Shown here piece after piece: positions 1 to 59,000 of a DNA stretch of 64,000 nucleotides. Within the stretch, counting starts at the first letter, position 1. Each line of letters opens with the position of its first letter. The stretch lies in assembly GCA_001029775.1 (NCBI GenBank), contig CP011215.1, forward strand, positions 123,187 through 187,186, in the 5' to 3' direction. The position numbers were made by a program, and so were the translations under genes. The notes under the pieces were generated by a model that was not told where the DNA came from, did not search any database, and saw only the letters and a list, made by a program, of their open reading frames with translations. The DNA comes from Candidatus Campbellbacteria bacterium GW2011_OD1_34_28. GTDB taxonomy: Bacteria; Patescibacteriota; Minisyncoccia; Phycocordibacterales; UBA12079.

Positions 1-1135
1 ATTCCATCTGTTGCAATCCCCTCAACGCCAACCCCAGAGCAACGGCAAATCCAGGACCCACTTGTTTTAACAAAGGTGCCAAAAATGCAGGAGCTTCTAC
101 CTTTGAAAAAGGGTCGGAGATCTCTACTTCTACTTCTGTATGGGATTTTGCAAATTCTGTCATGCCGTTGATTATAGATCCTCCTCCTGTGATAACCAAT
201 TTATCTACATTTTTGTTATATTTTTTCTGATACGCTAAAAAAGTTTTATTTACCTCGCCAAAAATATATTCCATACTTGAATAAACAATGTCAGAAACTT
301 CTTTTTCTGTAGGAGTATTCCCAGAAACACCTACTTTTATTTTTTGTTGTTCGGCATCGGTCGCGCTGATTCCTGTTGCTCTCGCAATATTCAATGTTAT
401 ATCTTGTGATCCCCTGCTGATAGAGTGAGAATCCTTGATCATTCCTTTTTCAATAATATATAGTTTTGTAGATCCAGACCCCATATCAAGAACAGCAAAA
501 TTTAGAATATTATGAGAAACAGCCGTTCTGATCGTACTAAAAATTTCTATTTCAAGAAAATTTAAACTTAATCCCGCTCCAGAGACAATTTCTTTTTGTT
601 TTAAAACAGTGTCTCGGTGAATTGCAGCGACCAAAACTTCTGTCTTGGGCACTTCTTCCCTTTTATTACTATTCTCTTCTCCCATAAAGCTTGTAACTGC
701 CATCTCTTCTTTCGGGATAACCTTCCAATCCAAATCCACTTCGGAAATAGGTACCGGAATATATTTTCTCGCTTCAATCGGAATCATTTGTTCCAATTGT
801 TTTTTGTCCATTGTTGGTAGTTGTATATTGAAAACAAGGGAGGATTTTAATGGTATTGAAACGCCACATTCTTTTGTTGTAACATTTGCTTCTTTTAACA
901 AATTTGTTATTGCTTCGCTCAACTGAGCAGAAGAAAGATTGGTTGCCCTACCTGCCTCAATATTTGCATAGGGGCCTAGTGACAGTTCGCCATAAGTTTC
1001 GAGAATTACAACACCATTTTTCTTTTTTAACTGAACAACTTTGATAGACGAAGAGCCAATATCAAGACCCAAAAAGCTGTCGCTTTTGTGCTTTAAAAAA
1101 CCGATATTGGATAATTTGCTAAAAGGATTGAGCAT
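1..1135 (-). CDS. pilM: Type IV pilus assembly protein PilM (actin-like ATPase fold). The N-terminus is at 1135 and the C-terminus runs off the window edge.
   Basis: Open minus-strand frame from the ATG at 1135-1133 to position 1 with no stop. The hand translation begins MLNPFSKLSNIGFLKHKSDSFLGLDIGSSSIKVVQLKK, includes ...LDMGSGSTKLYII..., and reads like PilM/FtsA over about 375 aa. It is absent from the ORF track only because the window edge leaves it without a stop. Confidence 0.8.
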   Translation of the reverse strand, partial: MLNPFSKLSNIGFLKHKSDSFLGLDIGSSSIKVVQLKKKNGVVILETYGELSLGPYANIEAGRATNLSSAQLSEAITNLLKEANVTTKECGVSIPLKSSLVFNIQLPTMDKKQLEQMIPIEARKYIPVPISEVDLDWKVIPKEEMAVTSFMGEENSNKREEVPKTEVLVAAIHRDTVLKQKEIVSGAGLSLNFLEIEIFSTIRTAVSHNILNFAVLDMGSGSTKLYIIEKGMIKDSHSISRGSQDITLNIARATGISATDAEQQKIKVGVSGNTPTEKEVSDIVYSSMEYIFGEVNKTFLAYQKKYNKNVDKLVITGGGSIINGMTEFAKSHTEVEVEISDPFSKVEAPAFLAPLLKQVGPGFAVALGLALRGLQQME

Positions 1136-1222
1136 TATTGTAGAAAATAAAAATTTATTGATTAAATTATAACATATTTTTTAAAGCTAACAGCCAACAG
1201 CTTATAGCGATTTAAAATTTAA

Positions 1223-1897
1223 TTGATAAAATTATCAACAATGAACAAATCTCTCAAAAAAATAGTTGAATATTTTTTAGACATTCTATTCCCCAGAAAT
1301 GAAATCCAAAAGAAACTAGCCACGATGACCGCAGAAGATTTTTTAAACAATATTCCTCGTACCAGACACGACGATAAAAACATCATTACAATATTTGATT
1401 ATCGTAACAAATTTATGAAAGAGGCAATTTGGTCTTTGAAATTTAGAAGAAACACTCGTTTAGCAAAAATCTTTGCTCAAATTATTTATGACGAAATATT
1501 AGAAGATCTTTCCGAGCTCGCTGTATTCCAAAATTTTAAAAACCCGATAATTATACCCATTCCTATTTCTTCAAAGAGAAAAAGGGAGCGTGGTTTTAAT
1601 CAATGCGAATTGATCGCAAACGAACTTTTAAATATCGGGGGTGATATCTTTACATTAGAAAGAAAAGTTTTGATAAAAATCAAAGACACCATTTCCCAAT
1701 CACGCACAAAAAACAAAAAAGAAAGACTGGAAAATTTGAAAGGGTGTTTCTCTGTAAATTACAAAGAAAAGATAAGGGGTAGAAATATTATTTTGTTGGA
1801 CGATGTCACCACGACAGGAACAACACTAAAAGAAGCAAGAAGAATTTTACACCGACATGGTGCAAAAAAGATTATTTGTGTGACGGTGGCGCATTAG
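1223..1897 (+). CDS. comFC: ComF family protein (phosphoribosyltransferase-domain competence protein ComFC). The start may instead be the internal ATG at 1241 (MNKSLKK).
   Basis: C-terminal PRTase signature IILLDDVTTTGTTL and an upstream RGFNQ motif; the size is typical for ComFC. Confidence 0.8.
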   Translation: MIKLSTMNKSLKKIVEYFLDILFPRNEIQKKLATMTAEDFLNNIPRTRHDDKNIITIFDYRNKFMKEAIWSLKFRRNTRLAKIFAQIIYDEILEDLSELAVFQNFKNPIIIPIPISSKRKRERGFNQCELIANELLNIGGDIFTLERKVLIKIKDTISQSRTKNKKERLENLKGCFSVNYKEKIRGRNIILLDDVTTTGTTLKEARRILHRHGAKKIICVTVAH

Positions 1898-2101
1898 ATT
1901 AGTTGGTAGTTGATAGTTTTTAGTTTTTAGGAGATGGGGTTAGTGGAGTTTTTCAGGCTGGAATTGTAATTGACCCCGCCTTGTAAGTTTGTTTTTGCTT
2001 TTTTAAAAATAGAAATCAAAGGTTCTTTGTGCACTGTTTGATATTTTCACTTACCAATTCATCTTAAGCAGTTAATTATCATAAGGACCTAATTCTTTCT
2101 T

Positions 2102-2815
2102 TTAATTCTTTGATTTTTTATTATTCAAATCAATGCCCCTTCCTGCGTAGTACTTTATAAATTCTGACACTAAAACACAATGGTCTTTTTGAGTATTTTG
2201 ACTCGCAAACCCCGACGGATTATGTAATGTTATAGTATTAGTTTTTTTATCATAGCCAGTAACTAAAACAAGATGTCCACCTCGCTGTGTAGCATCAGCA
2301 GTCTTATACCCTCTTATATTTGGGCTTACAGAAACAATTACAATATCACCATTTGATAATAATTTTTGTAATCCTCTAATTCCAAGTCTAGTATAAATCT
2401 TTGCCGACAAACCATAATTTTCTATCCAATCAACAAACTCCTTATAATGCATGCCGGAAATCTCTTGACCCTCTTTTTTATATACTCCATGATTTTTTGC
2501 ATCTTTTGCAAGAGTTACAATTCCTATTTGTTGTTTTTTAAAATGTTGCAAAGCCATTGAAGTACAAGCCATACCACATATAATTAGCACCCATTCCGCA
2601 TATTCTTCCGGAGATTGTGCTCCTGTATTTTTCCAATTTGGATCATTTGTTTTTTCAACCCCATCTTTAAGAATTTTTTCTGCGTATTCTGAGTGTGCAA
2701 ACTGACTTACATACGGAATTTTATTTTCAACAAATTCTTTTTGTTTAAAGAACAACACACTAATAGCAAGTTGCATATTTTGGATCTCATTTTTTATCTT
2801 TGTTAAAAATTTCAT
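2102..2815 (-). CDS. Peptidase C39-like (papain-fold cysteine peptidase) domain protein.
   Basis: Cys in LIICGMACTSMAL and His in GGHLVLVTGYD at the spacing of a C39-like domain. The start is trimmed to MKFLTK at 2815; the track ORF's first 19 codons read through an AT-rich promoter region. Confidence 0.6.
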   Translation of the reverse strand: MKFLTKIKNEIQNMQLAISVLFFKQKEFVENKIPYVSQFAHSEYAEKILKDGVEKTNDPNWKNTGAQSPEEYAEWVLIICGMACTSMALQHFKKQQIGIVTLAKDAKNHGVYKKEGQEISGMHYKEFVDWIENYGLSAKIYTRLGIRGLQKLLSNGDIVIVSVSPNIRGYKTADATQRGGHLVLVTGYDKKTNTITLHNPSGFASQNTQKDHCVLVSEFIKYYAGRGIDLNNKKSKN

Positions 2816-2865
2816 ATTATCTGATATTATAAGATAGTATATAAGAATAAATTGAAAATGATAAG

Positions 2866-2913
2866 AAAACAAAAATACCGCTTGGGCGGTATTTTTGTTT
2901 TGGTCGTGTGGGC
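2866..2913. repeat. Conserved hairpin block, copy 1 of 2: aaaaataccgc-ttgg-gcggtattttt followed by gttttggtcgtgtggg.
   Basis: Perfect 11-bp stem. Copy 2 at 5613-5660 has two substitutions inside the stem (t>c on one arm and a>g on the other) that are complementary to each other, so the hairpin stays perfect, plus the conserved downstream cttttggtcgtg. Confidence 0.7.
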
Positions 2914-3027
2914 TACCTCGGGCTAAGTAATGGTAGGATTAAGCAAAATAAGGTACAGTTGGTGAAAAAGAGAATTGATGGGGGTGCTTTAAATCTAAGA
3001 TTAGAATAAGCAAAAAGGTTGTGACGA

Positions 3028-3525
3028 TTAATTGATAGCTTCTGGTTCGAGGTTCTCTTTAAGGTCTTCGTATAATTTGAGAGCTCCTTTCTTTAAACCC
3101 TCTATAGCAGGTATGTCCTCACCATCTTCCAAAATTTTTATGTAAACAAACCCTAAGTTTTGTGGTACCTCATCTATATTTACCATTTTAGTCACAAGTA
3201 ATGTTCTCACCTGACTATCATTTTCGTAAAATTTATTTTGTTGCAATATATCTAATATAGTTTTTGCCATATTATCAACATCACGGGTCTTATAATCTTT
3301 TTTTGTAGAAGTAAAAAATTGAATTATTGCTACAAAAACTACTTTTGTTGTAGGAAATAATGAAGGGGGTTTATTTTCTGATAAACCAGCGGTTACTACT
3401 TTTTTAAATGTTTTAAGGCTACTGGATTCTTTTTTTCTAACATATATATCAACACCAGATTTTTTATAAGCTTCCTGTGTAGCTGGAATAATCCCATTAA
3501 TAACAAATTCATGATAATTTTTCAT
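3028..3525 (-). CDS. rusA: RusA-like Holliday junction resolvase (crossover junction endodeoxyribonuclease), typically phage-associated.
   Basis: KTRDVDNMAKTILDIL matches the RusA catalytic Asp motif (RxDxDN...K..LDaL); length 165 aa. Confidence 0.6.
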   Translation of the reverse strand: MKNYHEFVINGIIPATQEAYKKSGVDIYVRKKESSSLKTFKKVVTAGLSENKPPSLFPTTKVVFVAIIQFFTSTKKDYKTRDVDNMAKTILDILQQNKFYENDSQVRTLLVTKMVNIDEVPQNLGFVYIKILEDGEDIPAIEGLKKGALKLYEDLKENLEPEAIN

Positions 3526-3836
3526 TTCTTTTTCTTTTTTTCAAAATAAATAGGAGAATTTTCAACAACTGTTGTTTTAGGTCTTTTTTTGGCATCCCTA
3601 ACAGATATAAACTGCCCTGTTTTAGAATCTCTGCCGACAGTATAGTTTCTTGTACGATTATCCTTGCTAGAGTAATGTTCGGTAACAAAACGTCCAGTGT
3701 TTGGGTTTCTATATTTAATATTAAGTTCATCTTTTGATACTGATTTACCTTTTTTATCATAAAAATTAACCCGGGTCTTTTCCCCTTCTGTTTTAGAAAC
3801 AATAAAAAATACTTCCTCTTTTTTCTTTTTTGTCAT
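3522..3836 (-). CDS. Hypothetical small basic protein with an internal duplicated motif (NPNTGRFVT / RDSKTGQFISVRDAKKRPKTTVVE).
   Basis: ORF of 104 aa. Its stop lies within the next (rusA) start codon, suggesting an operon. The motif recurs in the 46-aa paralog at 3977-4117. Confidence 0.45.
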   Translation of the reverse strand: MTKKKKEEVFFIVSKTEGEKTRVNFYDKKGKSVSKDELNIKYRNPNTGRFVTEHYSSKDNRTRNYTVGRDSKTGQFISVRDAKKRPKTTVVENSPIYFEKKKKK

Positions 3837-3976
3837 ACTTATATTTTACACTTTTTGAGTTTGGTTTAAAACTAAAAACACCCGTCTTTCCTGCGGATGC
3901 TTTTAGTTATCTTAAAAATTATTTAAGATAGGCTTCAAAATAATAATTAACTATAAGTTAGTAAATTATTTCTGAA

Positions 3977-4117
3977 TTATTTCTTCGTATCACCATATCC
4001 TGGTTTAGGAACCCTTTCAACTACTGTTGTGTTAGGTCTCCTTTTAGCATCTTTAACAGGTATGAATTGACCTGTTTTAGAATCTCTACCAAGAGTGAAT
4101 GTTTTAGATTTACTCAT
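3977..4117 (-). CDS. Hypothetical 46-aa protein, a paralog of the C-terminus of the 3522-3836 product. Not in the ORF track.
   Basis: Hand translation: MSKSKTFTLGRDSKTGQFIPVKDAKRRPNTTVVERVPKPGYGDTKK. It shares GRDSKTGQFI.V.DAK.RP.TTVVE with the neighbouring gene. Confidence 0.4.
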   Translation of the reverse strand: MSKSKTFTLGRDSKTGQFIPVKDAKRRPNTTVVERVPKPGYGDTKK

Positions 4118-4293
4118 AAAATGAATTTATCTAGGGTTGATAAAAGGGCGTCAGTTGTGATAGAGTAAAAGTGTTAAGGTTTTACATGAACTCGCAACTA
4201 TCGAATAACCGACACGGGACGTTATAGGAAAGAAATCCCTATTCGTTTAAACGCCCAGAAAAGCTACCAAAAATTGGTGGCTTTTCTTGATTT

Positions 4294-4965
4294 TTAAACT
4301 ATCTTATATTTGGAACCCTTGAAAGGTATCTTTAAATGTTCAAGTCTGATTTCAAGGGCCTGTCTCGAAAGACCAAATCTTTCTTCAAATTTTGAAAAGT
4401 AATCATCCAAATTAAATTCAATAAGTATAATTCCATCAACTAGACCAATTTCTTGTAGAAAAGATTCGACCTCAATTTTTGGTGCTAATAAAGTTCCTGC
4501 GTATACATTAGCCTGCCACTCTCTTCTAATATTTGCTGTATCAAGCTTCTTTTTATTTTTACAAGGACTAGAATCTTCCCATCCAGTGATTAGTCCGTCT
4601 TCAGTAGAAAAAAGTGGACCGTGCAAAGATATGTGACCAGATTCATGAGCAATAGTAAATGAGATACGTTTTTGATTAGTACAACCCTCACCGACAATAA
4701 TTTGGCGTGATTCTGGACGTAGATATCCAAGAGTTTCTTCTGTTTCTAGTTCTTGCTGAATAATTTCAAAGCTAACATCAAAATCCCAAAGTTCCTTAAC
4801 AAAATTATCTACATCAATTGGAGTTGGAACGGATTTATTATATTTTTCTTGATATTTTTGGCGATATTTTGCGAGATCACTTAAAACTTGAGATTCAATC
4901 TCTTGTTTTGTTAGTTGATATGTATCAGCTAACGGATTCCATTTTTTAGTTACTCGTATTTTCAT
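4294..4965 (-). CDS. ImmA/IrrE family metallopeptidase (DUF955-type, HEXXH).
   Basis: Contains FTIAHESGHISLH (HExxH). Its start overlaps (ATGA) the stop of the upstream XRE-HTH gene, the classic ImmR/ImmA arrangement. Confidence 0.65.
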   Translation of the reverse strand: MKIRVTKKWNPLADTYQLTKQEIESQVLSDLAKYRQKYQEKYNKSVPTPIDVDNFVKELWDFDVSFEIIQQELETEETLGYLRPESRQIIVGEGCTNQKRISFTIAHESGHISLHGPLFSTEDGLITGWEDSSPCKNKKKLDTANIRREWQANVYAGTLLAPKIEVESFLQEIGLVDGIILIEFNLDDYFSKFEERFGLSRQALEIRLEHLKIPFKGSKYKIV

Positions 4966-5303
4966 TATTTTTTCTTTTTATTAACTTTTCTAAAAAGTAG
5001 TGGTTCTGGTTGCAACTCAATAGAAGATCCTGTTCTCTGAACATCAGCAACATGGTCCTCAAACTTCTCTATTAAATATGCTTGGACAAGATCATCATAC
5101 TCATTTTCGGAAAGATTATATGCATTCTTAATTTTTTTTATAGAATCTATAGGAGGAAGAACTCCAGATTCAAATTTACTAATATACGCATAATAATGCT
5201 CGCCAAAATATGGCTCAAGTTCTTTACTAAGACTTCGGATACTTTTTCCGGGGAAGCGAGCTTCCCTCAAAGATTTTATTTTATTTTTGAATTTATTAAT
5301 CAT
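4965..5303 (-). CDS. XRE-family helix-turn-helix transcriptional regulator (ImmR-like partner of ImmA).
   Basis: 112 aa; HTH-like SIRSLSKELEPYFGEHYYAYISKFESG; translationally coupled to the ImmA gene. Confidence 0.55.
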   Translation of the reverse strand: MINKFKNKIKSLREARFPGKSIRSLSKELEPYFGEHYYAYISKFESGVLPPIDSIKKIKNAYNLSENEYDDLVQAYLIEKFEDHVADVQRTGSSIELQPEPLLFRKVNKKKK

Positions 5304-5440
5304 GTAATTATTGTAACAAATAATAGTTACAGATGCAACACTTATAAAGTAAATAAAAAACCTTGTATTGTTAACAAACCAAGGGTTTTTCTTTATTTAT
5401 TATTTTAGGACTATGGGTCTACCGATAACAAGTATCTCCT

Positions 5441-5600
5441 GCGGAGAGGGAGGGATTCGGTCACAAGTCACTAAGTCTTTTGTTCGCCCTTCGCTATCGC
5501 TACGGGCTCCAAAAGCCAAAGTGTTCGCGACCCCGACTCAGAAAGTTGAAAAATTTAATAAATTTTTCCTTTCTTCCGTCTTTCGAATCCCTCCATCGCA
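5441..5600. repeat. 19-bp direct copy of the tRNA-Ser 3' end (gcggagagggagggattcg, compare 6579-6597), followed by a member of the composite repeat family (gtcacaagtcactaagtcttttgttcg...cgaccccgactc...) that ends in an inverted T-arm fragment (cgaatccctccatcgc).
   Basis: Sequence identity to the tRNA-Ser end; family members also at 6667-7080, 16745-17260 and 58205-58929. Confidence 0.7.
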
Positions 5601-5612
5601 GTTAGCGACACA

Positions 5613-5660
5613 AAAGAAAAACACCGCTTGGGCGGTGTTTTTCTTTTGGTCGTGCGGTGG
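5613..5660. repeat. Conserved hairpin block, copy 2 of 2: aaaaacaccgc-ttgg-gcggtgttttt followed by cttttggtcgtgcgg.
   Basis: See 2866-2913; the stem differences are compensatory. Likely terminator of the 5889-6479 gene. Confidence 0.7.
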
Positions 5661-5888
5661 CGATGTCCGGAAGTTTGAACCATTAAAACGCTTAAATATC
5701 AGGAATCTTGACTTGATTATACGAAAATTGAGACTAATTTACAAAGAAAAACCAGAATATTTCGAGGTGCCAAGTTTTGCAGTTAAAGTTTATTGATGTA
5801 TGCAGTATCCTATACTGTTTTGATAAGGATAATGTATATATCTATTTATCGCTATAATCCGCTACAATCGGCTATATAGTTAACATTA

Positions 5889-6479
5889 TTAATCCCGCTC
5901 AAAATCACTAGAAACTTTAACAGGATATTTGAAATCATCTTTTTCTGTCTCGATAACAGTATGAAAGCCAACTTCCCCGTCTTCTTTAACAAACTGCCAG
6001 GAGCCTTCCGGATCGTTTTTGAAACCAGCCGCATCTACAATATAAATAAAACCCTTTTCGACACTAACAAATTTACCATCGGGTAGAGTGTGAATTTCTA
6101 ATTCAAGAGGACTATCTTCACGAATAAAATATGGGTACCCTAGATTAACATTAATATTAGAATAAATTGACCGCATTATTGCAATTGCTGATTTATTCGC
6201 CGCAAAAATTTTCTTGTGATGAGATTTTAATTTGTCATCCTGTATTTCATGAATTGAGCCATGGAGTAAGAAGCCGTGATTTTGGCAAAGATAATCCAGA
6301 AAATGTTCTGTAGTAATACCTTCTTCTTTCAGCTCCTTTAAATTATCAAGTGAAATTTTTCTGACGCCCTCTGTTTGCGTTTCAAAATACTTTTTATAGA
6401 AGCCCTCCATTAATTTTTGCACCTCGATATTTTCGGGAGTCTGTGTCGGCTGTTCTATCTTTGGTTTTATATTTTCCAT
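5889..6479 (-). CDS. Hypothetical protein of 196 aa, lying between the tRNA-Ser att-like duplication and tRNA-Ser.
   Basis: Clean ORF; no recognisable motif. Confidence 0.5.
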   Translation of the reverse strand: MENIKPKIEQPTQTPENIEVQKLMEGFYKKYFETQTEGVRKISLDNLKELKEEGITTEHFLDYLCQNHGFLLHGSIHEIQDDKLKSHHKKIFAANKSAIAIMRSIYSNINVNLGYPYFIREDSPLELEIHTLPDGKFVSVEKGFIYIVDAAGFKNDPEGSWQFVKEDGEVGFHTVIETEKDDFKYPVKVSSDFERD

Positions 6480-6576
6480 AAGTTCGAATCCCTTGTGGGT
6501 TTATTCATTTTATCAAAATTCGGTTTCAAAATCTATTGAAAAATAAGGGTTAAATTATCTCATTTTTCAAAACTAC

Positions 6577-6666
6577 TGGCGGAGAGGGAGGGATTCGAAC
6601 CCTCGAAGGATATTACTCCTTGCCACGTTAGCAGTGTGGTGGTTTCAGCCTCTCACCCACCTCTCC
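6577..6666 (-). tRNA. tRNA-Ser (anticodon GCU), with long variable arm and encoded CCA.
   Basis: Reverse complement reads GGAGAGGTGGGTGAGAGGCTGAAACCACCACACTGCTAACGTGG...GAGGGTTCGAATCCCTCCCTCTCCGCCA. Acceptor 7-bp GGAGAGG/CCTCTCC, T-arm GAGGG-TTCGAAT-CCCTC, anticodon loop CTGCTAA. Confidence 0.85.
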
Positions 6667-7080
6667 ATGTTTTTTATTCAATTTTTGTCGAAGGATTTTA
6701 GTCACGAGTTACTAATCTTTTTGTTCGTTCTTCGCTACGCTACAAACTCCAAAAATATAAGTACTCTCGACCCCGACTCGACTGTCTCGCTTTGCTCGAC
6801 ATGTCTCCGTCTCTTGATTTCAGACAGAAAGCAAAGAAATTTGCTTTCCTTTCTGCTAAATATTTTTTATAAAAGATAAAAGATATTTAGCAGAACTTAA
6901 ATCAAGCCTTGCCACGTTAGCAGTGTGGTGGTTTCACCCACCTATTTCCTATTCGCCTATCGGCTCATAACGGAAATTTCTTCGCTTCGCTCAGAATCGG
7001 ATTAAAAACAAAGCAGTTTGTTTTTAGTCCTCTCACCCACCCCTGCCTGCCGGCAGGCAGGTCTCCAAAATTCAGTTTTT
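6667..7080. repeat. Non-coding region next to tRNA-Ser. It holds a tRNA-Ser fragment copy (ccttgccacgttagcagtgtggtggtttcac at about 6908-6940), a composite repeat family member (gtcacgagttactaatctttttgttcg...cgaccccgactcg), and the GC palindrome at 7041-7060.
   Basis: Direct sequence comparison with the tRNA gene at 6577-6666 and with 5460-5545. Confidence 0.65.
7041..7060. repeat. GC-rich 20-bp perfect palindrome CCTGCCTGCCGGCAGGCAGG, copy 1. Other copies: 11992-12011, 17026-17045, 56503-56522 and 58306-58325 (all perfect); 61210-61225 (degenerate); and the split variants 8102-8146 and 58789-58831.
   Basis: Exact 20-mer read at each listed position. Confidence 0.8.
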
Positions 7081-7258
7081 AGTTATTAGGTTTTAGTCTA
7101 TAGAAAACAAAAACCGTAATAAAGTGTACAAGAGTACACATACAAGAAGATATCATATTTTAACTTCAAAATCTATCTTTTTTAAAATTGCTTAAATTGC
7201 CCCAATCAAAAAGAGCGATTATATCGCTCTTTTTTGTTTTCTATATCTTTCTTGTTAA

Positions 7259-7942
7259 TTACTCTTGGTTCAAGATTTCTATTTCAGCATCTGCTTTTAA
7301 CTCTTGGAGGTATGTTGCAAATAATTCTTGTTGTTTCTGTTGTGTTATAAAAGCTTTAATTTGTTCAGAAATTTCTGAAAGCTCTGCAAGGTTTTCGTTA
7401 ACAGCAGATTCCTGATCATATGCTGTCTGAATTTCTTCTTCAGTTACTGTGATTGATTCAAGATCAAGAACTTTTTCTAGATATTTTTGAGTAACAAGGT
7501 CTCTTTCTATTTCTGTACGCAAAATATCTTCTGTTGTCCCTTGTGTAGAAAGAGCACTTTGATAAGCTGCTTCATCTTCAAATTGTCCCTTTATTGTTTC
7601 AATCTGTTCATCGATATCACTCTTTGAAACTTTTGTACCATCTTTTTTAACTGCTTGTTCCAACAAAGATTGAGAAATTAGACTATCAAGCGCTTGTGCT
7701 TTCAGTTGTCCAAGAGCTTCTTCATCAAGAGAAGCTTTATCTATCTGTTGTTCAGCAAGCATTTTCAATTCATAAGCGTCAAGATCGTTTTGGGTAATCT
7801 CTATACCATTTACACGAGCAACCACTGCTGAAGAATCTGAATCATCTTTAGGTAAGTTTGTATCTTTAATAAAATAAAAGTAAGCTCCAGCAAGAACAAC
7901 TAGAACTCCTATAACTATTGCGATTAATGTTTTTTGTTGCAT
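7259..7942 (-). CDS. SurA N-terminal-domain-like periplasmic chaperone, membrane-anchored.
   Basis: N-terminal TM (LIAIVIGVLVVLAGAYFYF) and an acidic coiled region resembling SurA_N/PpiD-type chaperones. The assignment rests on composition and architecture only. Confidence 0.4.
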   Translation of the reverse strand: MQQKTLIAIVIGVLVVLAGAYFYFIKDTNLPKDDSDSSAVVARVNGIEITQNDLDAYELKMLAEQQIDKASLDEEALGQLKAQALDSLISQSLLEQAVKKDGTKVSKSDIDEQIETIKGQFEDEAAYQSALSTQGTTEDILRTEIERDLVTQKYLEKVLDLESITVTEEEIQTAYDQESAVNENLAELSEISEQIKAFITQQKQQELFATYLQELKADAEIEILNQE

Positions 7943-8101
7943 ATTTAAAATATTAATTAAATCATGGAAGAACTTCCACCACGAATACTTTTTCTTTAAT
8001 AATATACTTATAGATTAACACGACAACAGCCTGCAACACAAATAAAGCTACTAACATCAAAGAAGCTTATGACCGATAGCGACAACGACGAATGACGTGG
8101 A

Positions 8102-8146
8102 CCTGCCTCTTTTCTGGAAGAAAAGCAACGACACGGCAGGCAGGTC
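8102..8146. repeat. Split variant of the GC palindrome: cctgcct-[cttttctggaagaaaagcaacgacacg]-gcaggcagg. An identical insert (one R difference) occurs at 58789-58831.
   Basis: Direct sequence comparison of the two loci; the insert itself contains a small hairpin cttttc-tggaa-gaaaag. Confidence 0.7.
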
Positions 8147-8214
8147 GCGTCGTTTCACTCGCGAAGACGAAGATTCCATAACGAAGCAGTCCCCATTTCG
8201 TAATTCAAAATACT

Positions 8215-10356
8215 TTATTCAAAATGCACCTCTATTTTCTTTAACCTTTCTTTTATCAAAAGATACTTTTTCAATTCTGGATCTTTCTCAATTATTTCTT
8301 TTGCTTCATTGCGAGCCGATTCTACCATTTTAATATTTTTTATTGCCTCCATTCCTATATCAGAAATACCCCATTGTTTTTTGCCCGACAATTCTCCCGA
8401 TCCTCTCAATTCCAAATCAGCTTCGGCCAATTTAAAACCGTTTTCTGCTGTTTTCAAAGCATTTAATCTGTTCAATGTTTGTTCCGATTTTGTATCACTA
8501 AAAATAAAACAATAGGCTTGGGTGTTACTTCGCAATACTCTTCCTCTTAGTTGATGTAGTTGTGCCAATCCAAATCTTTCTGCTCCTTCAATCACTATCA
8601 TTGTTGCATTTGGAACATTTACTCCCACTTCAACAACAGAAGTAGAGACGAGAATATCTATCTCCTTTTCTTCAAATTGTCGCATTGTCTCTTCTTTTTC
8701 TTTTGGCTTCATCTTGCTGTGCAAAATATCAATTTCATATTCTGGGAAAATTTCTTCTTTCAATCTTTTTGCTTCTGTTTTGACAGACTTAACATTGAGA
8801 GTGTTTGCTTTGTCTGGATCTGGTTCGTCTATACGGGGACAAATTACATACAATTGTCTACCTGCTTGCAGTTCTTTTCGCATTTCTTCATAGGCAGTTT
8901 TTCTTCTCTCTGGTGTAACTATTTCTGTTATCACAGGCTTTCTCCCTTTTGGCATTTCGTCCAACAAAGTTAAATCTAGATCGCCATAAATTGTTAAGGC
9001 GAGCGTGCGGGGAATAGGTGTCGCAGTCATGCTCAACAAGTGTGGGATTCTTTCGTCCTTTTTTGTTATGTCTCTTCTTTGCTTTGTGCCAAATCTATGC
9101 TGTTCGTCAATAATCACATACGCCAAATTTTTAAACTCAACACTTTTTTGAATAAGCGAGTGCGTTCCTATTAAAATAGGAATTTCTCCGTTTGCCGTCC
9201 ATTTCAAAAGTTGGGAACGAGAAATATCTGTCCATGTCTCAGGATTTGTTTTTGAAGGAAATTTTTTACAGCCACTAGAAGTGATCAAACCAATCTGAAC
9301 ATTCAAATGATAAAAATATTGAATAAAAGATTCAAAAAGTTGTTTCGCCAAAATTTCTGTTGGCGCCATATACGCTGTTTGCAAAGCTCCAGCATTTGAT
9401 CCGTTTGGTTTTGTTGTGGTTACTGCATAGACGGTCGTGGCAGCAACAGCTGTTTTTCCCGACCCGACATCCCCCTCCAGCAATCTAGACATGGCGTTGC
9501 CTTTTTCAAAATCAGACAATATTTGATCAATAGATTTTTCTTGAGATTTTGTAAGTTTGAAAGGAAACTTTTCTGTAAATTTTTTTGCAGAATCTTTTTT
9601 ATTTTCTATTTTAAAAGACGGTTTTTCTAAAGATTCTCTTTTTTGTTTTTGACGAAGTAGCTGAATAAAGAAAATTTCCTCAAAAGCAAATCTTTTTCTC
9701 GCCGACAAGGCATCGGATTGTTTCTTCGGAGAGTGAATCCAGATGAGAGAGGTTTTTAATTTTGGTAAACTATATTTTTTTAAAATATCTTCCGGAATAG
9801 CATCTTCAATATTATCCAAAAGGCCAGATGTAAAAACCTTTTGAATACTGTGATAGATCCATTGCGATGTGACCCCTTTGCTTTCGGGATAGACGGGAAT
9901 AAAAAAATGATTGTCTGTTTCTTTGTTAAAAATTCCCGATGTTATACTTTCGGTTATCTCATATTCTGGATTAGCCAAATAAGGTTTTCCTTTTCTTTCA
10001 CTAATGGTTCCTGAAAATTTTGCGTATGTCCCCTCGGGCAACATCTTTGCAATGTATGGTTGGCGAAACCAAACTGCTTGAATAGATCCTTCACTGTCTT
10101 CCAACACAGCTTCTGTCATTGTAATCTTTTTGTAATATGCTTTGGTTGGTTTTATTTTTTTTACTCTGGCATAGATAATTATTTTGTCGCCTTTTTGAAC
10201 ATTTTTTGTATTTTTTATCTCTTCGGTATCACCATAACGAGCAGGAAAATAATAGAGTAAATCCTCTACCGTGTTTAGACCGATTTTTTTCAACGCTTTT
10301 TTTCTACTGTCTGGCAAACGAGGAAAAATATCTTCAATTTTTGAGTTTAGATTCAT
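8215..10356 (-). CDS. recG: ATP-dependent DNA helicase RecG.
   Basis: Walker A GDVGSGKT, DEQHRFG, and helicase C-terminal motifs (QLHQLRGRV); 713 aa. Confidence 0.9.
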   Translation of the reverse strand: MNLNSKIEDIFPRLPDSRKKALKKIGLNTVEDLLYYFPARYGDTEEIKNTKNVQKGDKIIIYARVKKIKPTKAYYKKITMTEAVLEDSEGSIQAVWFRQPYIAKMLPEGTYAKFSGTISERKGKPYLANPEYEITESITSGIFNKETDNHFFIPVYPESKGVTSQWIYHSIQKVFTSGLLDNIEDAIPEDILKKYSLPKLKTSLIWIHSPKKQSDALSARKRFAFEEIFFIQLLRQKQKRESLEKPSFKIENKKDSAKKFTEKFPFKLTKSQEKSIDQILSDFEKGNAMSRLLEGDVGSGKTAVAATTVYAVTTTKPNGSNAGALQTAYMAPTEILAKQLFESFIQYFYHLNVQIGLITSSGCKKFPSKTNPETWTDISRSQLLKWTANGEIPILIGTHSLIQKSVEFKNLAYVIIDEQHRFGTKQRRDITKKDERIPHLLSMTATPIPRTLALTIYGDLDLTLLDEMPKGRKPVITEIVTPERRKTAYEEMRKELQAGRQLYVICPRIDEPDPDKANTLNVKSVKTEAKRLKEEIFPEYEIDILHSKMKPKEKEETMRQFEEKEIDILVSTSVVEVGVNVPNATMIVIEGAERFGLAQLHQLRGRVLRSNTQAYCFIFSDTKSEQTLNRLNALKTAENGFKLAEADLELRGSGELSGKKQWGISDIGMEAIKNIKMVESARNEAKEIIEKDPELKKYLLIKERLKKIEVHFE

Positions 10357-10366
10357 TTGTTATTTT

Positions 10367-10708
10367 TTATTCATTAAAAAACTGCTTTGGCTCTCCTGAT
10401 ACAAGATGAAAGTGTAGATGCTGTGATTCTTGAAAACTTCCACCGTTAGTTATTATTTTATAGTTACTCTCAGAAAGATTCTTTTCTTTAATAATATCTA
10501 TTACCACCTCAAAAATTTCTTTAATTAAATTTGTATTTTCTAAATCTGTAAGTCTAGTTATGTGTTGTTTTGGAATAATAACAATATGAAGTGTCCAATT
10601 TGGTTTTGTATGATAAAAAGCTAAAACATTGTTTGTTTCTCTAACTTTTTCTATTTTTATTTTATTGTTTAAAACAAAATTACAATAAAAATCTTCATTA
10701 ATATTCAT
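10367..10708 (-). CDS. HIT family (histidine triad) protein.
   Basis: HLHFHL triad near the C-terminus. The start is trimmed to MNINEDF; it sits 10 bp downstream of recG. Confidence 0.7.
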   Translation of the reverse strand: MNINEDFYCNFVLNNKIKIEKVRETNNVLAFYHTKPNWTLHIVIIPKQHITRLTDLENTNLIKEIFEVVIDIIKEKNLSESNYKIITNGGSFQESQHLHFHLVSGEPKQFFNE

Positions 10709-10744
10709 AAAGACAGTATACAATATTTATGATTTAACTTGTAA

Positions 10745-10848
10745 CCAAAACCTATACCAGTATTTTGCAAAATACTGGTATAGGTTTTGATAATTATTTA
10801 TTTTGAATAAAACAAAAACAGCAGATACCCTAGGGTATCTGCTGTTAA
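10745..10848. terminator. Two tandem perfect hairpins (aaaacctataccagtattttgcaaaatactggtataggtttt and aacagcagataccctagggtatctgctgtt).
   Basis: Perfect inverted repeats with flanking A/T runs, downstream of the 10845 minus-strand gene. Confidence 0.6.
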
Positions 10849-11111
10849 TTCCAGTCAGAGAGACTTTCTTCTGATGATTGAAAATCGGTCTCCTCTACAA
10901 AAGCGAGAAAATCATTAAGGTCGGAAAGTATAATAACATCATCATCTCCGTTCGTCATTTTTTCAAAAACACGAGATGCTTTCTCGTACACAGTAAGAGT
11001 TGGGTCCCCAAAGATAGGCACCGTAAAAGAAAAAGTTCTGCCTCTCGGACCACACACGAGGGTGATAAAGTTAATACTTTTTAAACGTCTCAAAGGTTTT
11101 TTCGGCATCAT
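10845..11111 (-). CDS. Hypothetical acidic 88-aa protein, second gene of a two-gene operon.
   Basis: Start ATGATG at 11111 is preceded by GAGGTG that overlaps the TGA stop of the upstream gene. The N-terminal extension shown in the ORF track is rejected. Confidence 0.5.
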   Translation of the reverse strand: MMPKKPLRRLKSINFITLVCGPRGRTFSFTVPIFGDPTLTVYEKASRVFEKMTNGDDDVIILSDLNDFLAFVEETDFQSSEESLSDWN

Positions 11112-11119
11112 ACGACACC

Positions 11120-11395
11120 TCATTGTTTGTTGATTTGAGCAGCACAATCTGCCTCTATGGAATTTAAAATATTAAACAAAGCGGAAGTACTCTTTTCATC
11201 AAAACTGTTCGAGTTTAAAATAGCTTGGATCAGACGATGAGCTGTCACAGACAAAGTAGGACTAACATGAATAAATGTTCCGTTCATTACATCGTGAAAT
11301 ACAGAAACTCTATTTTCTAATTTTTCTCCAATAGAGAAATGTTTGCCGATAACCCTTGAACCGTCATTAAAGTCAATTAAAACGAAATCTGGCAC
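11120..11395 (-). CDS. Hypothetical 91-aa protein, first gene of a two-gene operon.
   Basis: Strong SD (GAGGAGG) upstream of the ATG at 11395. Confidence 0.5.
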   Translation of the reverse strand: MPDFVLIDFNDGSRVIGKHFSIGEKLENRVSVFHDVMNGTFIHVSPTLSVTAHRLIQAILNSNSFDEKSTSALFNILNSIEADCAAQINKQ

Positions 11396-11535
11396 ATTTA
11401 CCTCCTCTCACATATATTAAAGTATCAATTTCTAATATCAGTAAATCACAAATACATAAACAAAACAACAAAAATTCAAATTTGCGAAAAGATCATTTTT
11501 GATATAAAGTTTGTGTATAAATTGAGTTTGAATAT

Positions 11536-11608
11536 GCGCACGTAGCTCAGTTGGTAGAGCGCCGAGCTTATACCTCGGTGGTCCCAGGTTCGAGTCCTGG
11601 CGTGCGCA
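11536..11608 (+). tRNA. tRNA-Ile with anticodon UAU (TAT); no encoded CCA.
   Basis: GCGCACG-TA-GCTC-AGTTGGTA-GAGC-G-CCGAG-CTTATAC-CTCGG-TGGTC-CCAGG-TTCGAGT-CCTGG-CGTGCGC-A. All stems are Watson-Crick; the 7-nt anticodon loop is CTTATAC. Confidence 0.8.
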
Positions 11609-11646
11609 CAAAATTAAAAATACTTTTGCTAAAAACCAAAAGTATT

Positions 11647-11973
11647 TTATTTAATCAACTCGAATTTAATAACTTTTACAGGGCTATTTTCATCAACTGG
11701 CCTGTGATAATAACCAGAGTATGTTTCATACATTTCCTTTTCCGATTCAAATTTTTCATGACCGTTCCAATCTTCATCAGTTAATTTTCCAAAAGTAGTT
11801 TCATTTACATCTAGTATCTTTGCTCTTTTGAATTCTTCTCCGGTCTCCCAAACCAAAAAAGAAATTTCGTCCCCCGCTGATAAATCTTTGTCGTCAAATA
11901 AACGCCAAGTAGTATCTTTCGTGTTCGACAAAATCATATCGGCTAATTTTTTTCTAAATTTTAATGTTTTCAT
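11647..11973 (-). CDS. ASCH (PUA-like) domain protein.
   Basis: 108-aa core with an ASCH-like pattern (RLFDDKDLSAGDEISFLVWETGEEF...VKVIKFELI). The start is trimmed because the ORF-track N-terminus MQTCLPAGRAIEFLI is just the translation of the GC palindrome at 11992-12011. Confidence 0.5.
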   Translation of the reverse strand: MKTLKFRKKLADMILSNTKDTTWRLFDDKDLSAGDEISFLVWETGEEFKRAKILDVNETTFGKLTDEDWNGHEKFESEKEMYETYSGYYHRPVDENSPVKVIKFELIK

Positions 11974-12256
11974 AATTAAAAATTCAATCGCCCTGCCTGC
12001 CGGCAGGCAGGTTTGCAAGAACCGGATAAAAAACTTAAACGCTTTTTATCCAACTGAGCTACATGTGCATACACAAAACTTTATCTCAAAACGTCTATTT
12101 AATCAACTCGAATATTTTTACCTTTCTTACTTTTGATTACCGACATGGATTACTTCGTTTCACTCGCAAGGATGGGCGAGCTGTCGGCTTCGTTTTCGTC
12201 CTTACTACTTAATACTTACTACTTATACCTAGTTGGGAAAACAAAAAATAGTTTTG

Positions 12257-16328: not shown

Positions 16329-16713
16329 GGGGGTGATCGGCATAGACATTTAGTCTACTCTTATATGTGCAAAGTCGAAATGAGTAATTCGTAAAAAGGC
16401 TTGTAAAGATAAGTGCAAACTTGTCACAAAAAGCAAAAGCTATGGTTTCACCATATTTCGCTTTTGCTCCAGCATTAGCTTAAGTCTAGGCTGGCGGTCA
16501 ATCTGTTGATTGTTTGGTAAACAGAATGATTGTCATATCACCAAACTAGAAAATAAATCCGCTTCGCTTTATTTTCAAAATCAAGAAGATCGAGATTTTA
16601 AGGTTTTGTTTATTTATTACTTAACTTCTTTAAAAACCAAAAAATATCCTACACTTTGTAGACTCATATAAGAACGCTATTTGCACGCGAGTTCGATTCT
16701 CGCCACTTCCACA
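16329..16713 (+). ncRNA. ssrA: tmRNA (ssrA), candidate. The 5' end is GGGGGTGATCGGCATAGAC. The 3' tRNA-like end is GCGAG-TTCGATT-CTCGC-CACTTCC-A. A possible tag frame is ...GCAAAAGCTATGGTTTCACCATATTTCGCTTTTGCTCCAGCATTAGCTTAA (ends ...FAFAPALA*).
   Basis: Position directly downstream of smpB. The acceptor pairs GGGGGTG/CACTTCC when G-U pairs are allowed. T-arm TTCGATT. Length about 385 nt. The 5' boundary and the tag frame are inferred, not verified. Confidence 0.55.
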
Positions 16714-17340
16714 ATTTAAAAACACTGCCTTTAAAGGCAGTGTTTTTAAATTGTGGAAGTGAGCAAGGCAACTGCTTGCCTTGCGTGCGAGAATCGAAAG
16801 TCGGAACATGTTGAGCGAAGTGAAACAGTGAGACGGGGTCGCGAGCACTTAGGCTTTTGGAGTTCGCAGCGAAGCGGAGAACGAACAAAAGACTTAGTGA
16901 CTTGTGACCGATTCTCGCCTACTCTCTTAAGTCCCAAAGCACCTAGCTTTGGGGCTTTTGATTTTGTAAGAAGTGGCGAGAATCGAAACGAGCGAAGTAT
17001 GGAGGAGCGAAACGACGAACACGAGCCTGCCTGCCGGCAGGCAGGCGAGCGGGGATAAAAAACGTTTAAGTTTTTTATCTGTTTTTTGCGAAGCAAAAAA
17101 TTTTCTTAATTGAGTGAAACGAAATAGAAAATAGGAGGAACAGAGTTCTTAGTGAAGACGAGTTCCGAGCTTGTCGAGGGACGAAGTCTGAACTTAGAAC
17201 TGGAGACCGATTCTCGCCCAAAAGACTTAGTGACTTGTGGCCGATACAGACCACCTCCGCCAGAACATAAAGCAAATTAAAACCGTCTGAACTGTACCCC
17301 AAAAAGTGGGCACTTTCGTGCCCACTTTTTGAGGTACAGT
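16714..17340. repeat. Repeat-rich non-coding block downstream of the tmRNA. It holds a 58-bp perfect palindrome across the tmRNA 3' end (cacttccacaattt...aaattgtggaagtg), inverted members of the composite repeat family, the GC palindrome at 17026-17045, and a terminal terminator (aaaaagtgggcactttcgtgcccacttttt).
   Basis: The reverse complement of 16840-16925 matches gtcacaagtcactaagtcttttgttcg...cgaccccg seen at 5460 and 58475. ggcgagaatcg copies the tmRNA T-arm. Confidence 0.65.
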
Positions 17341-56283: not shown

Positions 56284-56639
56284 TAAATAAAGAAAAGAGC
56301 GACCTGCCAAGCAGGTCGCTCTTTTCTTTATTTATTAGCGAATTATTAATTTTAAATTATAAATTATAAATTACTTTAAATTACACCCAGATGACGAAAA
56401 AGTTCTTTAAATTTCTAATTATTTCAAAATTAGATACAGAACGAGGAGCAAGAACAAAATGGAAGAAGGCATATTTTTAATACGACGACTGATGTTTTGT
56501 GACCTGCCTGCCGGCAGGCAGGATTGCGACAAAGTTATGTGCTAATTTTGAGATAATTATCACCTATTGCACAAAAAATGGCTTAATATATAATAGTTAG
56601 TATAAATGGTTTTATTAGTAATTAATAAAAAATAAAAAA

Positions 56640-58204: not shown

Positions 58205-58929
58205 TTTTCTTTGTGCGGATAGGACAGAAGAGAATCGGCGCCAGTTCTAAATATTTTGTTCGTCACTCGACAAGCTCGTGACTTCAAAATATTAAGAACT
58301 CGCTGCCTCGCTCGCCTGCCTGCCGGCAGGCAGGCTCGTGTTCGTCGGGCAAAGCCCTCCTCCATACTTCACTCGTTTCGATTCTCCCTATTCGCTACAA
58401 AAACCAAAGACCCAAAAGCTGCCGCTTTTGGGTCTAGGTTTTTGTGCGGATAGAATAGATGAGAATCGGTCACGAATCACTAAGTCTTTTGTTCACCCTT
58501 CACTTCGTTACGGGTTCCAAAAGTCTAAGTGTTCTCGACCCCGGCTCGCCTTCTCGCTTCGCTCGATATGGCTCCGCCTTTCGATTCTCCACGAAAAGCA
58601 AGCAGTTGCTTTTCTCTATCCGAACAGCACAAAGTGAAAACCACCCTATTCGGGTGGTTCACTTTGGCTGTGCGGATAGGATAGATGAGAATCGGTCTCC
58701 AGTTCTAAGTAAAAATTTCGTTTTCGCTTCGCTTCAACTCATTTTTACTAAGAACTCGCGACCCCGCTCGCTCAGATTTTTTCTCCACCCTGCCTCTTTT
58801 CTGAAAGAAAAGCAACGACACGGTAGGCAGGTTCGTTACGAAAAAATATACTTCGCTCGTTTCGATTCTCCCTATTCGCTACAAAAATATATTACGAAAA
58901 AGCTAGTCGCTTTTTCTCCATTATTTTTG
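58205..58929. repeat. Three tandem units of about 230-260 bp of the composite repeat family. Each begins with a copy of the tRNA-Gly 3' end (ttgtgcggatagga.agaRgagaatcgg at 58211, 58443, 58669) and ends with an inverted copy (cgattctcc...ctatccg...caca). Units carry the GC palindrome (58306-58325) or its split variant (58789-58831).
   Basis: Direct comparison with the tRNA-Gly gene at 58930-59000 (tgtgcggatagggagaatcgaac). Unit interiors match 5460-5545 and 16840-16925 (gtcacgaatcactaagtcttttgttc...cgaccccg) and 17195-17255 (gagaatcggtctccagttctaagt). Confidence 0.75.
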
Positions 58930-59000
58930 TGCGGATAGGGAGAATCGAACTCCCGACTCATCCTTGGCAAGGACGTATTTTACCACTAAACCATATCCGC
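58930..59000 (-). tRNA. tRNA-Gly (anticodon GCC); no encoded CCA.
   Basis: Reverse complement reads GCGGATATGGTTTAGTGGTAAAATACGTCCTTGCCAAGGATGAGTCGGGAGTTCGATTCTCCCTATCCGCA. Acceptor GCGGATA/TATCCGC, anticodon loop TTGCCAA, T-arm GGGAG-TTCGATT-CTCCC. Confidence 0.8.

Follow-up and report, generated by a model that had tools for sequence, protein, structure and literature searches.

We analysed a 64,000-nucleotide (nt) stretch, hereafter the window, which is a chromosome segment from the Patescibacteria (candidate phyla radiation, CPR) genome Candidatus Campbellbacteria bacterium GW2011_OD1_34_28, and which carries a short hairpin element behind a serine transfer RNA (tRNA-Ser) gene. This element is a member of a previously undescribed family that lies behind tRNA and transfer-messenger RNA (tmRNA) genes across Patescibacteria. 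The housekeeping genes around the locus are PilM, ComF, RecG, FtsH, SmpB, tmRNA and RNase Y. The gene of a hypothetical protein next to the element (ORF196, an open reading frame (ORF) of 196 amino acids), together with the surrounding 16.5 kb, was found at 99.98-100% identity in four independent assemblies (ERZ27254739 from ENA, 3300025011 from JGI, GCA_003456895.1 and GCA_003457415.1).

Genes for tRNA were called by ARAGORN, and RNA families by the covariance models of Rfam 15. The original prediction for this region held that positions 5441-5459 are an exact copy of the 3' end of tRNA-Ser, and alignment showed 19/19 positions identical to 6579-6597, the 3'-end segment of tRNA-Ser(GCT) that runs from C56 of the T-loop to C74. 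This 19-mer, GCGGAGAGGGAGGGATTCG, occurred at these two sites only in the window, even when 3 mismatches were allowed, and was not expected by chance (100 shuffles). As had also been noted, the distal 19-mer adjoins a repeat, GTCACAAGTCACTAAG...CGACCCCGACTC, at 5460-5539, and an inverted T-arm fragment, TTCGAATCCCTCCATC, is present 124 nt further on, at 5582-5597 (15/16 identical). The parts of the locus are given below in the sense of the tRNA, where X denotes the 3' part of the tRNA from T-loop C56, hp a terminator hairpin, I (or X') the inverted copy of X, E the two-hairpin body and D the direct copy of X.

6577-6666, minus strand: intact tRNA-Ser(GCT) (ARAGORN; Rfam RF00005, 52.3 bits), with nt 56-74 at 6579-6597 forming the proximal 19-mer (X/D0)
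5657-5690, minus strand: D', a decayed tRNA-Ser-type 3' end (GGTTCAAACTTCC...CCGCA) with an ACGACC trailer, aligned to the flanks of tRNA-Ser(GGA) at loci L014 and L030
5611-5648, no strand: hp, a perfect 17-bp bidirectional terminator-like hairpin preceding I (inverted-repeat search)
5582-5599, minus strand: I, an inverted copy of the T-loop and T-stem (15/16), its acceptor part decayed (repeat search, sequence)
5460-5581, minus strand: E, a type-1 two-hairpin body, with P2 at about 5460-5532 and P1 at about 5541-5578, which folds on the tRNA-sense strand
5441-5459, minus strand: D, the distal direct copy of the tRNA-Ser 3' end, C56 to C74 (19/19)

Read from 5599 down to 5441, I is followed by E (about 120 nt) and then by D, which together make up an element of about 160 bp, and D' (5657-5690), hp and I form a D-hp-I module. 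A covariance-model match at 5457-5542 scored 86.9 bits on the sense strand as compared to 18.4 bits on the antisense strand, and the folding energy was -72.7 kcal/mol in sense and -58.3 kcal/mol in antisense.

A family of hairpin elements behind tRNA and tmRNA genes

An 18-mer from the body was searched in 185,579 species genomes and gave 29 loci, of which 22 were in Patescibacteria and 7, in unrelated sequence, were seemingly due to chance. The 22 loci cover many classes (Saccharibacteria, Paceibacterota, Yonath-, Campbell- and Parcubacteria), and at nearly all of them the motif stood 70-300 nt behind a co-oriented tRNA gene and was preceded by the complement of that gene's own 3' end. A covariance model of the main hairpin of the body (R1) was run on the window, on the 18-mer loci and on 80 related loci spanning 896 kb around recG (L034-L113; L numbers denote the loci of this survey). 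A tRNA or tmRNA gene lay upstream on the same strand, within about 1.1 kb, in 52 of the 62 sense matches, and in 37 of these 52, which come from many genomes and tRNA species, the flank after the body started at T-loop position 56 of the upstream tRNA and matched it over 8-28 nt. A second class of junction, at about position 72, was seen mainly with tRNA-Ile(UAU) and also with tRNA-Arg at L033. The recG relatives contributed 24 sense-strand R1 matches, 19 of them 57-145 nt behind a co-oriented tRNA-Ser, tRNA-Ile or tmRNA. Units were found behind at least 15 species, namely the tRNAs for Ser, Gly, Pro, Gln, Glu, Phe, Met, Ile, Arg, Leu, Trp, Tyr, Ala and Asp, and tmRNA; R1 detected them also behind neighbouring tRNA genes that had not been selected for (Gly at L008 and L027, Ile at L010 and L019, Ala at L014, Asp at L022 and Tyr at L032).

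Because the position-56 copy directly follows the body in 37 of the 52 tRNA-linked matches, the distal 19-mer at tRNA-Ser belongs to the element of about 160 bp at 5441-5599, and the two 19-mers can no longer be taken as the limits of one integrated island of 1.1 kb. The broader idea of integration at the tRNA 3' end survived in that there has been repeated insertion at the 3' side of tRNA-Ser, with a junction in the T-loop as at attachment (att) sites. The 'family repeat' proposed earlier likewise exists, although it is no local repeat: it is a structured element, found phylum-wide, whose occurrence is linked to tRNA and tmRNA genes.

The body has no match in Rfam: only tRNA and tmRNA were returned at the gathering score, and nothing relevant at an E-value of 10 over 5300-7200. 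There were also no matches of the body in IMG/VR (2.9 million viral contigs, searched with the exact 18-mer and a degenerate 25-mer) or in phage and plasmid collections, which excluded a known phage or plasmid att arm. Keyword and sequence-string searches of the literature returned no description of the hairpin elements.

The window holds two further arrays, besides a second body close to tRNA-Ser.

16713-17262, plus strand: array behind tmRNA (sequence; covariance-model match of 91.8 bits)
58214-58928, minus strand: array behind tRNA-Gly(GCC), with three units of type 2, type 1 and type 2 (sequence; covariance model)
6698-6782, minus strand: second type-1 body, inserted into a pseudo-tRNA-Ser (variable arm) that lies directly upstream of the intact tRNA-Ser (77.1 bits)
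6907-7066, minus strand: 5' pieces of the pseudo-tRNA-Ser (repeat search, sequence)

R1 matched four type-1 and two type-2 bodies in the window, every one co-oriented with the neighbouring tRNA-Ser, tmRNA or tRNA-Gly gene, with 36-92 bits in sense as against 18-29 bits in antisense. The general unit reads, in tRNA sense, tRNA[X] - hp - X' (inverted) - E - X (direct), and is frequently tandem. In the tmRNA array the first unit comprises hp, I split by a hairpin termed H0, a type-1 body (16827-16911) and D1 (16909-16924); these are followed by hp, I, a type-2 body, a shortened D2 (17208-17218), a body fragment (17219-17241) and, joined to this truncated body, a foreign tRNA 3' end, CGATACAGACCACCTCCGCCA (17242-17262). 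That this 3' end is from a different tRNA is evidence that arrays have exchanged sequence between tRNA loci. In the tRNA-Gly array, R1 matched bodies at 58692-58772, 58466-58550 and 58235-58316, and each unit ends in a tRNA-Gly 3'-end copy with a shared insert of 6-7 nt. The target-derived parts of the two arrays copy the 3' ends of tmRNA and tRNA-Gly, respectively. ORFs of 116-159 amino acids lie wholly inside the hairpin-element arrays (5368-5796, 16746-17096 and 58459-58938) and are likely spurious gene calls.

On the other side of tRNA-Ser, the second repeat copy mentioned in the original prediction was located at 6701-6783, in agreement with the covariance-model match, and its flank TAAAATCCTTCGA at 6688-6700 corresponds to the 3' side of the tRNA-Ser variable arm. 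The copy of the anticodon and variable-arm region reported there is present as well, at a length of 33 nt instead of 30 (97% identity, 6907-6939 versus 6618-6650); the piece 6907-6946 equals tRNA-Ser nt 5-49 minus 8 nt, and 7029-7041 plus 7062-7066 equal nt 1-18. The pseudo-tRNA-Ser is broken in three ways, by the type-1 body, which sits in the variable arm and not in the T-loop, by the 8-nt deletion, and by a 20-bp palindrome that splits nt 1-18. This palindrome, CCTGCCTGCCGGCAGGCAGG, is the GC palindrome that had been described, at 7042-7061. It is perfect and has five copies in the window (the others at 11992-12011, 17026-17045, 56503-56522 and 58315-58334), and it was also found in Saccharibacteria loci (L026, L022), inside tRNA-3'-end copies; it looks like a second, separate phylum-wide mini-element.

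Fold of the body, target copies, and gain and loss

On the sense strand 96.5% of cells were paired, and on the antisense strand 90.3%. In the main hairpin one G·U pair was invariant in 22/22 sequences, one pair was G-C in 13 sequences and G·U in 9, another alternated between A-U (13) and G-C (8), and the apical stem showed compensatory changes; the covariation score was reached in 0/500 shuffles. Whole units folded 8-20 kcal/mol better on the sense strand, and 33 invariant columns were common to distant classes. Since the predicted folding is strand-specific, the active form of the body is probably a folded single strand of tRNA sense, which would be RNA or single-stranded DNA (ssDNA). Pairing of I with D closes a three-way junction that contains both hairpins, and H0, a small conserved hairpin (AGCRAG...CTYGCGT), splits I exactly at the boundary of acceptor and T-stem in at least 9 loci. 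The apical loops were C-GNA-G triloops in 8 of 11 short-loop variants. In DNA such triloops are hyperstable, and RNA is usually capped otherwise; by this analogy they give a weak hint towards ssDNA.

The hairpin and the body are conserved between loci while the copies of X are local. At the distant locus L027, the hp and type-2 body that follow tRNA-Arg can be aligned with those that follow tRNA-Gly in the window, whereas D0 and I differ between the two loci, each matching the tRNA of its own locus, and at L033 two different tRNA-Arg genes have nearly identical trailer-hp-E modules. The target copies appear to be re-made at each site. The T-loop part of D in L022, and of I in L019 and L027, was non-local while the stem and acceptor parts were local in all three, which places an exchange point in or at the end of the T-loop. 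That the inverted copy duplicates the 5' strand of the tRNA was ruled out, as I at tmRNA reads GGAAGTG and the 5' strand GGGGGTG; it is Watson-Crick complementary to the 3' strand. The junction sequences were GACC/GAATCC and GGATTC/GAAAG, where the slash marks the junction. GC skew has a single sign across the window although arrays occupy both strands; orientation therefore follows the tRNA and not replication, and dependence on the lagging strand was rejected.

The tRNA-Ser locus had been proposed as an insertion hotspot, and indel polymorphism among relatives bore this out. Most related tRNA-Ser loci were empty and about ten were filled, with varied body types (L049, L050, L055, L064, L069, L072, L083, L090, L098 and L107). 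An empty site was found at L038, where ComF, tRNA-Ser and RecG are adjacent, with spacers of 62 and 80 nt. Over 55 nt, the D copy and terminator of L049 shared 98% identity with the 3' end of tRNA-Ser and its terminator at L072, as compared to 86% between the tRNAs, which indicates that the inserted piece there was X-hp-I-E, the element bringing its own terminator. At L027, a single body has a nearly exact copy of D-hp-I on either side, the two copies differing at one position of I; this is the arrangement that accretion through recombination at X would be expected to give.

The lineage-specific block and ORF196

The hairpin element of tRNA-Ser lies in a block of lineage-specific DNA, to which the following features belong.

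1898-6576, no strand: lineage-specific DNA from ComF to the tRNA-Ser 3' end, 4.7 kb (Pfam, PHROGs, tblastn)
2866-2950, minus strand: D'', a second module of hp and a decayed tRNA-3'-end-like sequence (89% over 46 nt; alignment)
5889-6479, minus strand: ORF196, hypothetical protein, with 74 homologues, widespread across many Patescibacteria lineages
6482-6492, plus strand: short copy of the T-loop and T-stem in inverted orientation, GTTCGAATCCC, immediately preceding the start codon of ORF196 (read from the sequence, without statistics)

The block contains a C39-like peptidase, RusA, ORF104, an ImmA-like M78 peptidase, a helix-turn-helix (HTH) protein, the hairpin element and ORF196. It was considered lineage-specific because its genes had no homologue in the 80 related loci: tblastn found none there for the C39-like peptidase, RusA, ORF104, the ImmA-like peptidase, the HTH protein, ORF196 or a SurA-like gene. 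Modules resembling tRNA 3' ends punctuate the block, namely D at 5441, D' with hp at 5611-5690 and D'' with hp at 2866-2950. A 46-nt direct repeat (2866-2911 and 5612-5657, 89%), consisting of the hairpin and GGTCGTGYGG, flanks the RusA/ORF104/ImmA/HTH part, and the D' and D'' modules (tRNA-Ser-type 3' end, ACGACC trailer and hairpin) are homologous to the tRNA-Ser(GGA) flanks in L014 and L030. A 91-nt direct repeat (80%) at 3551-3641 and 4006-4096 probably derives from two paralogous small genes.

As stated in the original prediction, there is one ATG ORF between the two 19-mers, that of ORF196, and the bracketed segment carries no recombinase, ORF196 matching no family or fold in Pfam, PHROGs, NCBIfam, PDB or Foldseek searches. 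The AlphaFold model of ORF196 was confident (pLDDT 89.8) and had no Foldseek match in PDB. Its invariant residues include H73-G-S75, N108, Y115, Y117, W161, E177 and D182. The homologues occurred in contexts unrelated to tRNAs, with no body nearby. None of these tests pointed to a hidden recombinase, as neither the family searches (Pfam, PHROGs, NCBIfam) nor the sequence search of PDB gave a match; on these results ORF196 is cargo or a bystander.

Several observations were made on the tRNA genes of the related loci. Large serine recombinase genes adjoin tRNA-Ser genes in L101 (282-1901), L011 (897-2630) and L030 (91-1686), and in L101, with tRNA-Ser(GCT), and L011 the recombinase ORF runs into the tRNA-Ser on the opposite strand. 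The relative orientation of tRNA-Ser, recG and tRNA-Ile varies between positions 1-12000 of the window and L034, L036, L038 and others, which implies that inversions have occurred repeatedly, with tRNA genes and their inverted repeats as the boundaries. A tRNA-Ile(UAU), an anticodon that is rare in bacteria, stands beside recG in the window (11536-11609) and in 60 of the 80 related loci. A second tRNA-Ser with the predicted anticodon ACT, which is either an unusual anticodon or a diverging duplicate, stands beside tRNA-Ser(GCT) in 10 related loci (L042, L045, L076, L082, L083, L090, L100, L101, L108 and L112).

Proposed mobility of the elements and rival explanations

Domain searches of the 53 ORFs of the window returned neither an integrase, transposase, HUH or reverse transcriptase nor any Phage_integrase or Resolvase/Recombinase domain, and the 64-kb window holds no Y1 HUH transposase or REP-associated tyrosine transposase (RAYT; REP, repetitive extragenic palindrome). 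Two large serine recombinases (L011, L030) were the only ones among the 92 ORFs of the 22 element-bearing loci, and no tyrosine integrase was present among the 25 families that were each matched by at least two of these ORFs. We favour, with a little more than even confidence, the view that these are non-autonomous mobile hairpin elements that target the T-loop and pile up by accretion. The elements would then move and not just be inherited, the work would be done by an enzyme acting in trans or by host recombination together with template switching, and the inverted copy would be made from the target during or after insertion.

In the mechanism that we propose, the element would enter a tRNA or tmRNA gene in the T-loop at the C56/G57 boundary or, for a subclass, in the final bases of the tRNA. 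Once it is in place, the gene would read through a fresh copy of X and the terminator hairpin brought by the element, followed by inverted X, the two-hairpin body and the tRNA's former 3' part and native terminator. Successive events at one tRNA would stack units in tandem and so give the arrays at tRNA-Ser, tmRNA and tRNA-Gly. The incoming form may be a circle or folded single strand [X-hp-I-E] that is joined at X; alternatively, hairpin modules may be inserted and followed by fold-back synthesis on the target, in a manner like that of rolling hairpins. A bolder version is, in our judgement, less likely than not: enzyme-less, trans-mobilised hairpins across Patescibacteria would enter any tRNA or tmRNA T-loop as a folded single strand, by a so far undescribed mode of insertion, the target 3' end would be re-synthesised both ways (hairpin-primed, fold-back or guide-like), the tRNA would be restored, a conserved-local-conserved mosaic would result, and most tRNA genes would be occupied in some genomes.

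Several points weigh against mobility. The copies within this genome are merely 75-88% identical, with no sign of a recent burst, and near-identical populations of this genome showed no polymorphism at the locus (their assemblies are 100% identical and thus uninformative). An autonomous relative carrying the type-1 body was absent from the window, 120 loci, IMG/VR, and the phage and plasmid collections. A conservative integrase model leaves the inverted copy unaccounted for and does not explain how X and I turn local at a new tRNA, and the placement of H0 has no account in a mobile-element model. The high sequence conservation across classes could reflect a cellular function in place of mobility.

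Such a function is the core of the best-surviving rival, which we nevertheless hold to be rather unlikely: the units may be genes of structured non-coding RNAs whose closing stem imitates the neighbouring tRNA's acceptor and T stems and would thereby let RNase P and RNase Z cut them out of read-through transcripts, the local tRNA copies being a remnant of gene origin by duplication. This would agree with a fold specific to the tRNA-sense, that is the transcribed, direction, with its G·U pairs and covariation, with the intrinsic-terminator hairpins that bracket the units, with the 33 invariant columns across distant classes and with H0, which stands at the point of the acceptor/T-stem stack from which the remainder of a tRNA would emerge. 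The closing helix also recalls that of the tRNA-like domain of tmRNA, YrlA (a bacterial Y RNA) and mascRNA, in which an acceptor/T-stem-like helix is kept and the rest is replaced by other structure; unlike these RNAs, the units have no T-loop, as the helix runs through, belong to no Rfam family, and take their helix sequence from the neighbouring tRNA. However, the interval from the upstream terminator to I offers neither room nor signals for a promoter, and a scan of the region found promoter-like sites no more often than by chance. Rfam gave zero matches to the body even at an E-value of 10, the units are patchy among close relatives, and the tandem arrays include truncated units and the foreign tRNA end at 17242-17262. 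Most of the short apical loops are C-GNA-G triloops (8/11), which are hyperstable in DNA rather than usual RNA caps, and processing does not account for the need of local tRNA sequence.

In a second rival, which we judge improbable, the locus is the remnant of an integrase-borne island or prophage, the 19-mers being attL and attR, the integrase having been lost and the repeat being leftover arm DNA. The att-like geometry and the T-loop junction fit such an origin, as does the 4.7-kb stretch from ComF to tRNA-Ser, which is lineage-specific and carries the phage-like RusA, the ImmA/HTH pair and the C39-like peptidase; large serine recombinase genes also abut tRNA-Ser in L101 and L011. Against it, D is contiguous with the body of about 120 nt in 37 of 52 tRNA-linked matches and behind at least 15 tRNA species, and in most such loci just the hairpin, the inverted copy and the body lie between the tRNA and D. 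The units are 150-250 bp long and tandem, the body is missing from the 2.9 million viral contigs and from the phage and plasmid records, and att sites do not have an inverted target copy as a feature. An island origin probably applies to the larger 4.7-kb block, and is compatible with mobile hairpin elements.

Work by Williams (2002) and that on ICESt1 and cis-mobilizable elements (CIMEs) reportedly described elements that cross over in the T-loop of tRNA and tmRNA genes and tandem CIME derivatives devoid of integrase. The units described here share with such elements a direct repeat of the tRNA 3' segment from the T-loop (19/19), an intact proximal tRNA, tandem accretion, patchy presence and absence at the same tRNA in relatives and the lack of a recombinase inside the unit; as in CIMEs, att-type repeats flank DNA free of recombination genes, and there are tandem arrays (16713-17262, 58214-58928, and the D-hp-I duplication of L027). 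They differ from them in the inverted target copy, in the conservation of hp and body with target copies re-made locally, and in that no cognate integrase-bearing element was found in the loci and collections searched. Unlike integrase islands, they measure 150-250 bp, sit at many tRNAs and tmRNA rather than at one specific tRNA gene, and have no integrase inside next to the att site.

It is also quite doubtful that no dedicated mobility is involved and that the units arose from replication template switching (fold-back) at the terminator and body hairpins and spread between genomes by natural transformation and homologous or microhomology recombination on conserved tRNA. Two strand switches at inverted repeats would be expected to give the order X-hp-X'-E-X, and the window encodes a competence apparatus (ComEC, ComF, pilus genes). 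The non-local T-loop part of D or I (L022, L019, L027) would be expected for exchange in the sole stretch common to all tRNAs, and the 98% identity of the D-terminator between L049 and L072, against 86% for the tRNAs, points to recombination. Nevertheless, the first arrival of the body at a new tRNA, the usual difference between the two hairpins that flank a unit, and the second precise junction class at about position 72 are left unexplained by template switching. Chance similarity or an assembly artefact is refuted, to the point of a negligible probability, by the zero chance expectation of the 19-mer, the identity of the locus across four independent assemblies and the recurrence of the element family in dozens of genomes.

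Hairpin elements of this kind resemble several other systems in part. They are like the palindrome-associated transposable elements (PATEs) of IS200/IS605 and the REPs and bacterial interspersed mosaic elements (BIMEs) (Y1 HUH) in that they are small, do not code for protein, carry two hairpins that are strand-specific and include G·T pairs, have precise ends, lack terminal inverted repeats belonging to the element and keep a fixed orientation to the target; the left flank, as in PATEs, ends in (A/T)TC (compare GTTC of the T-loop). In contrast, PATEs and REP-RAYT systems make no target duplication, be it direct or inverted, and are not known to be tied to tRNA T-loops, whereas here the target 3' end is found direct and inverted at each unit and the window has no Y1 transposase or RAYT. 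Integron cassettes and attC sites likewise form arrays of small promoterless units with conserved ends and variable centres, and attC consists of imperfect palindromes that act as a folded, strand-selective single strand; however, the units described here have no IntI, attI or Pc, no RYYYAAC and GTTRRRY boxes and no G/TTRRRY junctions (slash as above), the conserved hairpin is itself the 'cassette' content and the site is a tRNA gene. As a mechanistic analogy only, parvovirus-type rolling-hairpin concatemers also show a short segment alternating between direct and inverted, with two different turn-around hairpins, (X-hp-X'-E)n, but the units are chromosomal, have no Rep/HUH gene and hold as their 'genome' between the hairpins 17-30 nt of tRNA. 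A classical MITE (a miniature transposable element with terminal inverted repeats of its own and a short direct target-site duplication) differs in that here the inverted flanks copy the local tRNA and not the element, and the duplicated target is 8-28 nt long and also inverted.

Genes for tRNA are classic landing sites of mobile DNA, and to our knowledge the occupants described so far are large elements equipped with an integrase of their own. Here, many tRNA and tmRNA genes throughout a huge and little-known radiation have at their 3' side a non-coding unit of about 200 bp, which rebuilds the tRNA end and the terminator and copies its target in both orientations. If mobile, the units would imply an undescribed trans-acting activity specific for the T-loop or a route based on host replication, and would explain inversion and gene-gain hotspots beside tRNAs in reduced genomes; if they are RNAs instead, they would constitute a new phylum-wide RNA family. 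Either way, they provide a marker for the annotation of regions now called as spurious ORFs, and a testable system in the cultivable, transformable Saccharibacteria.

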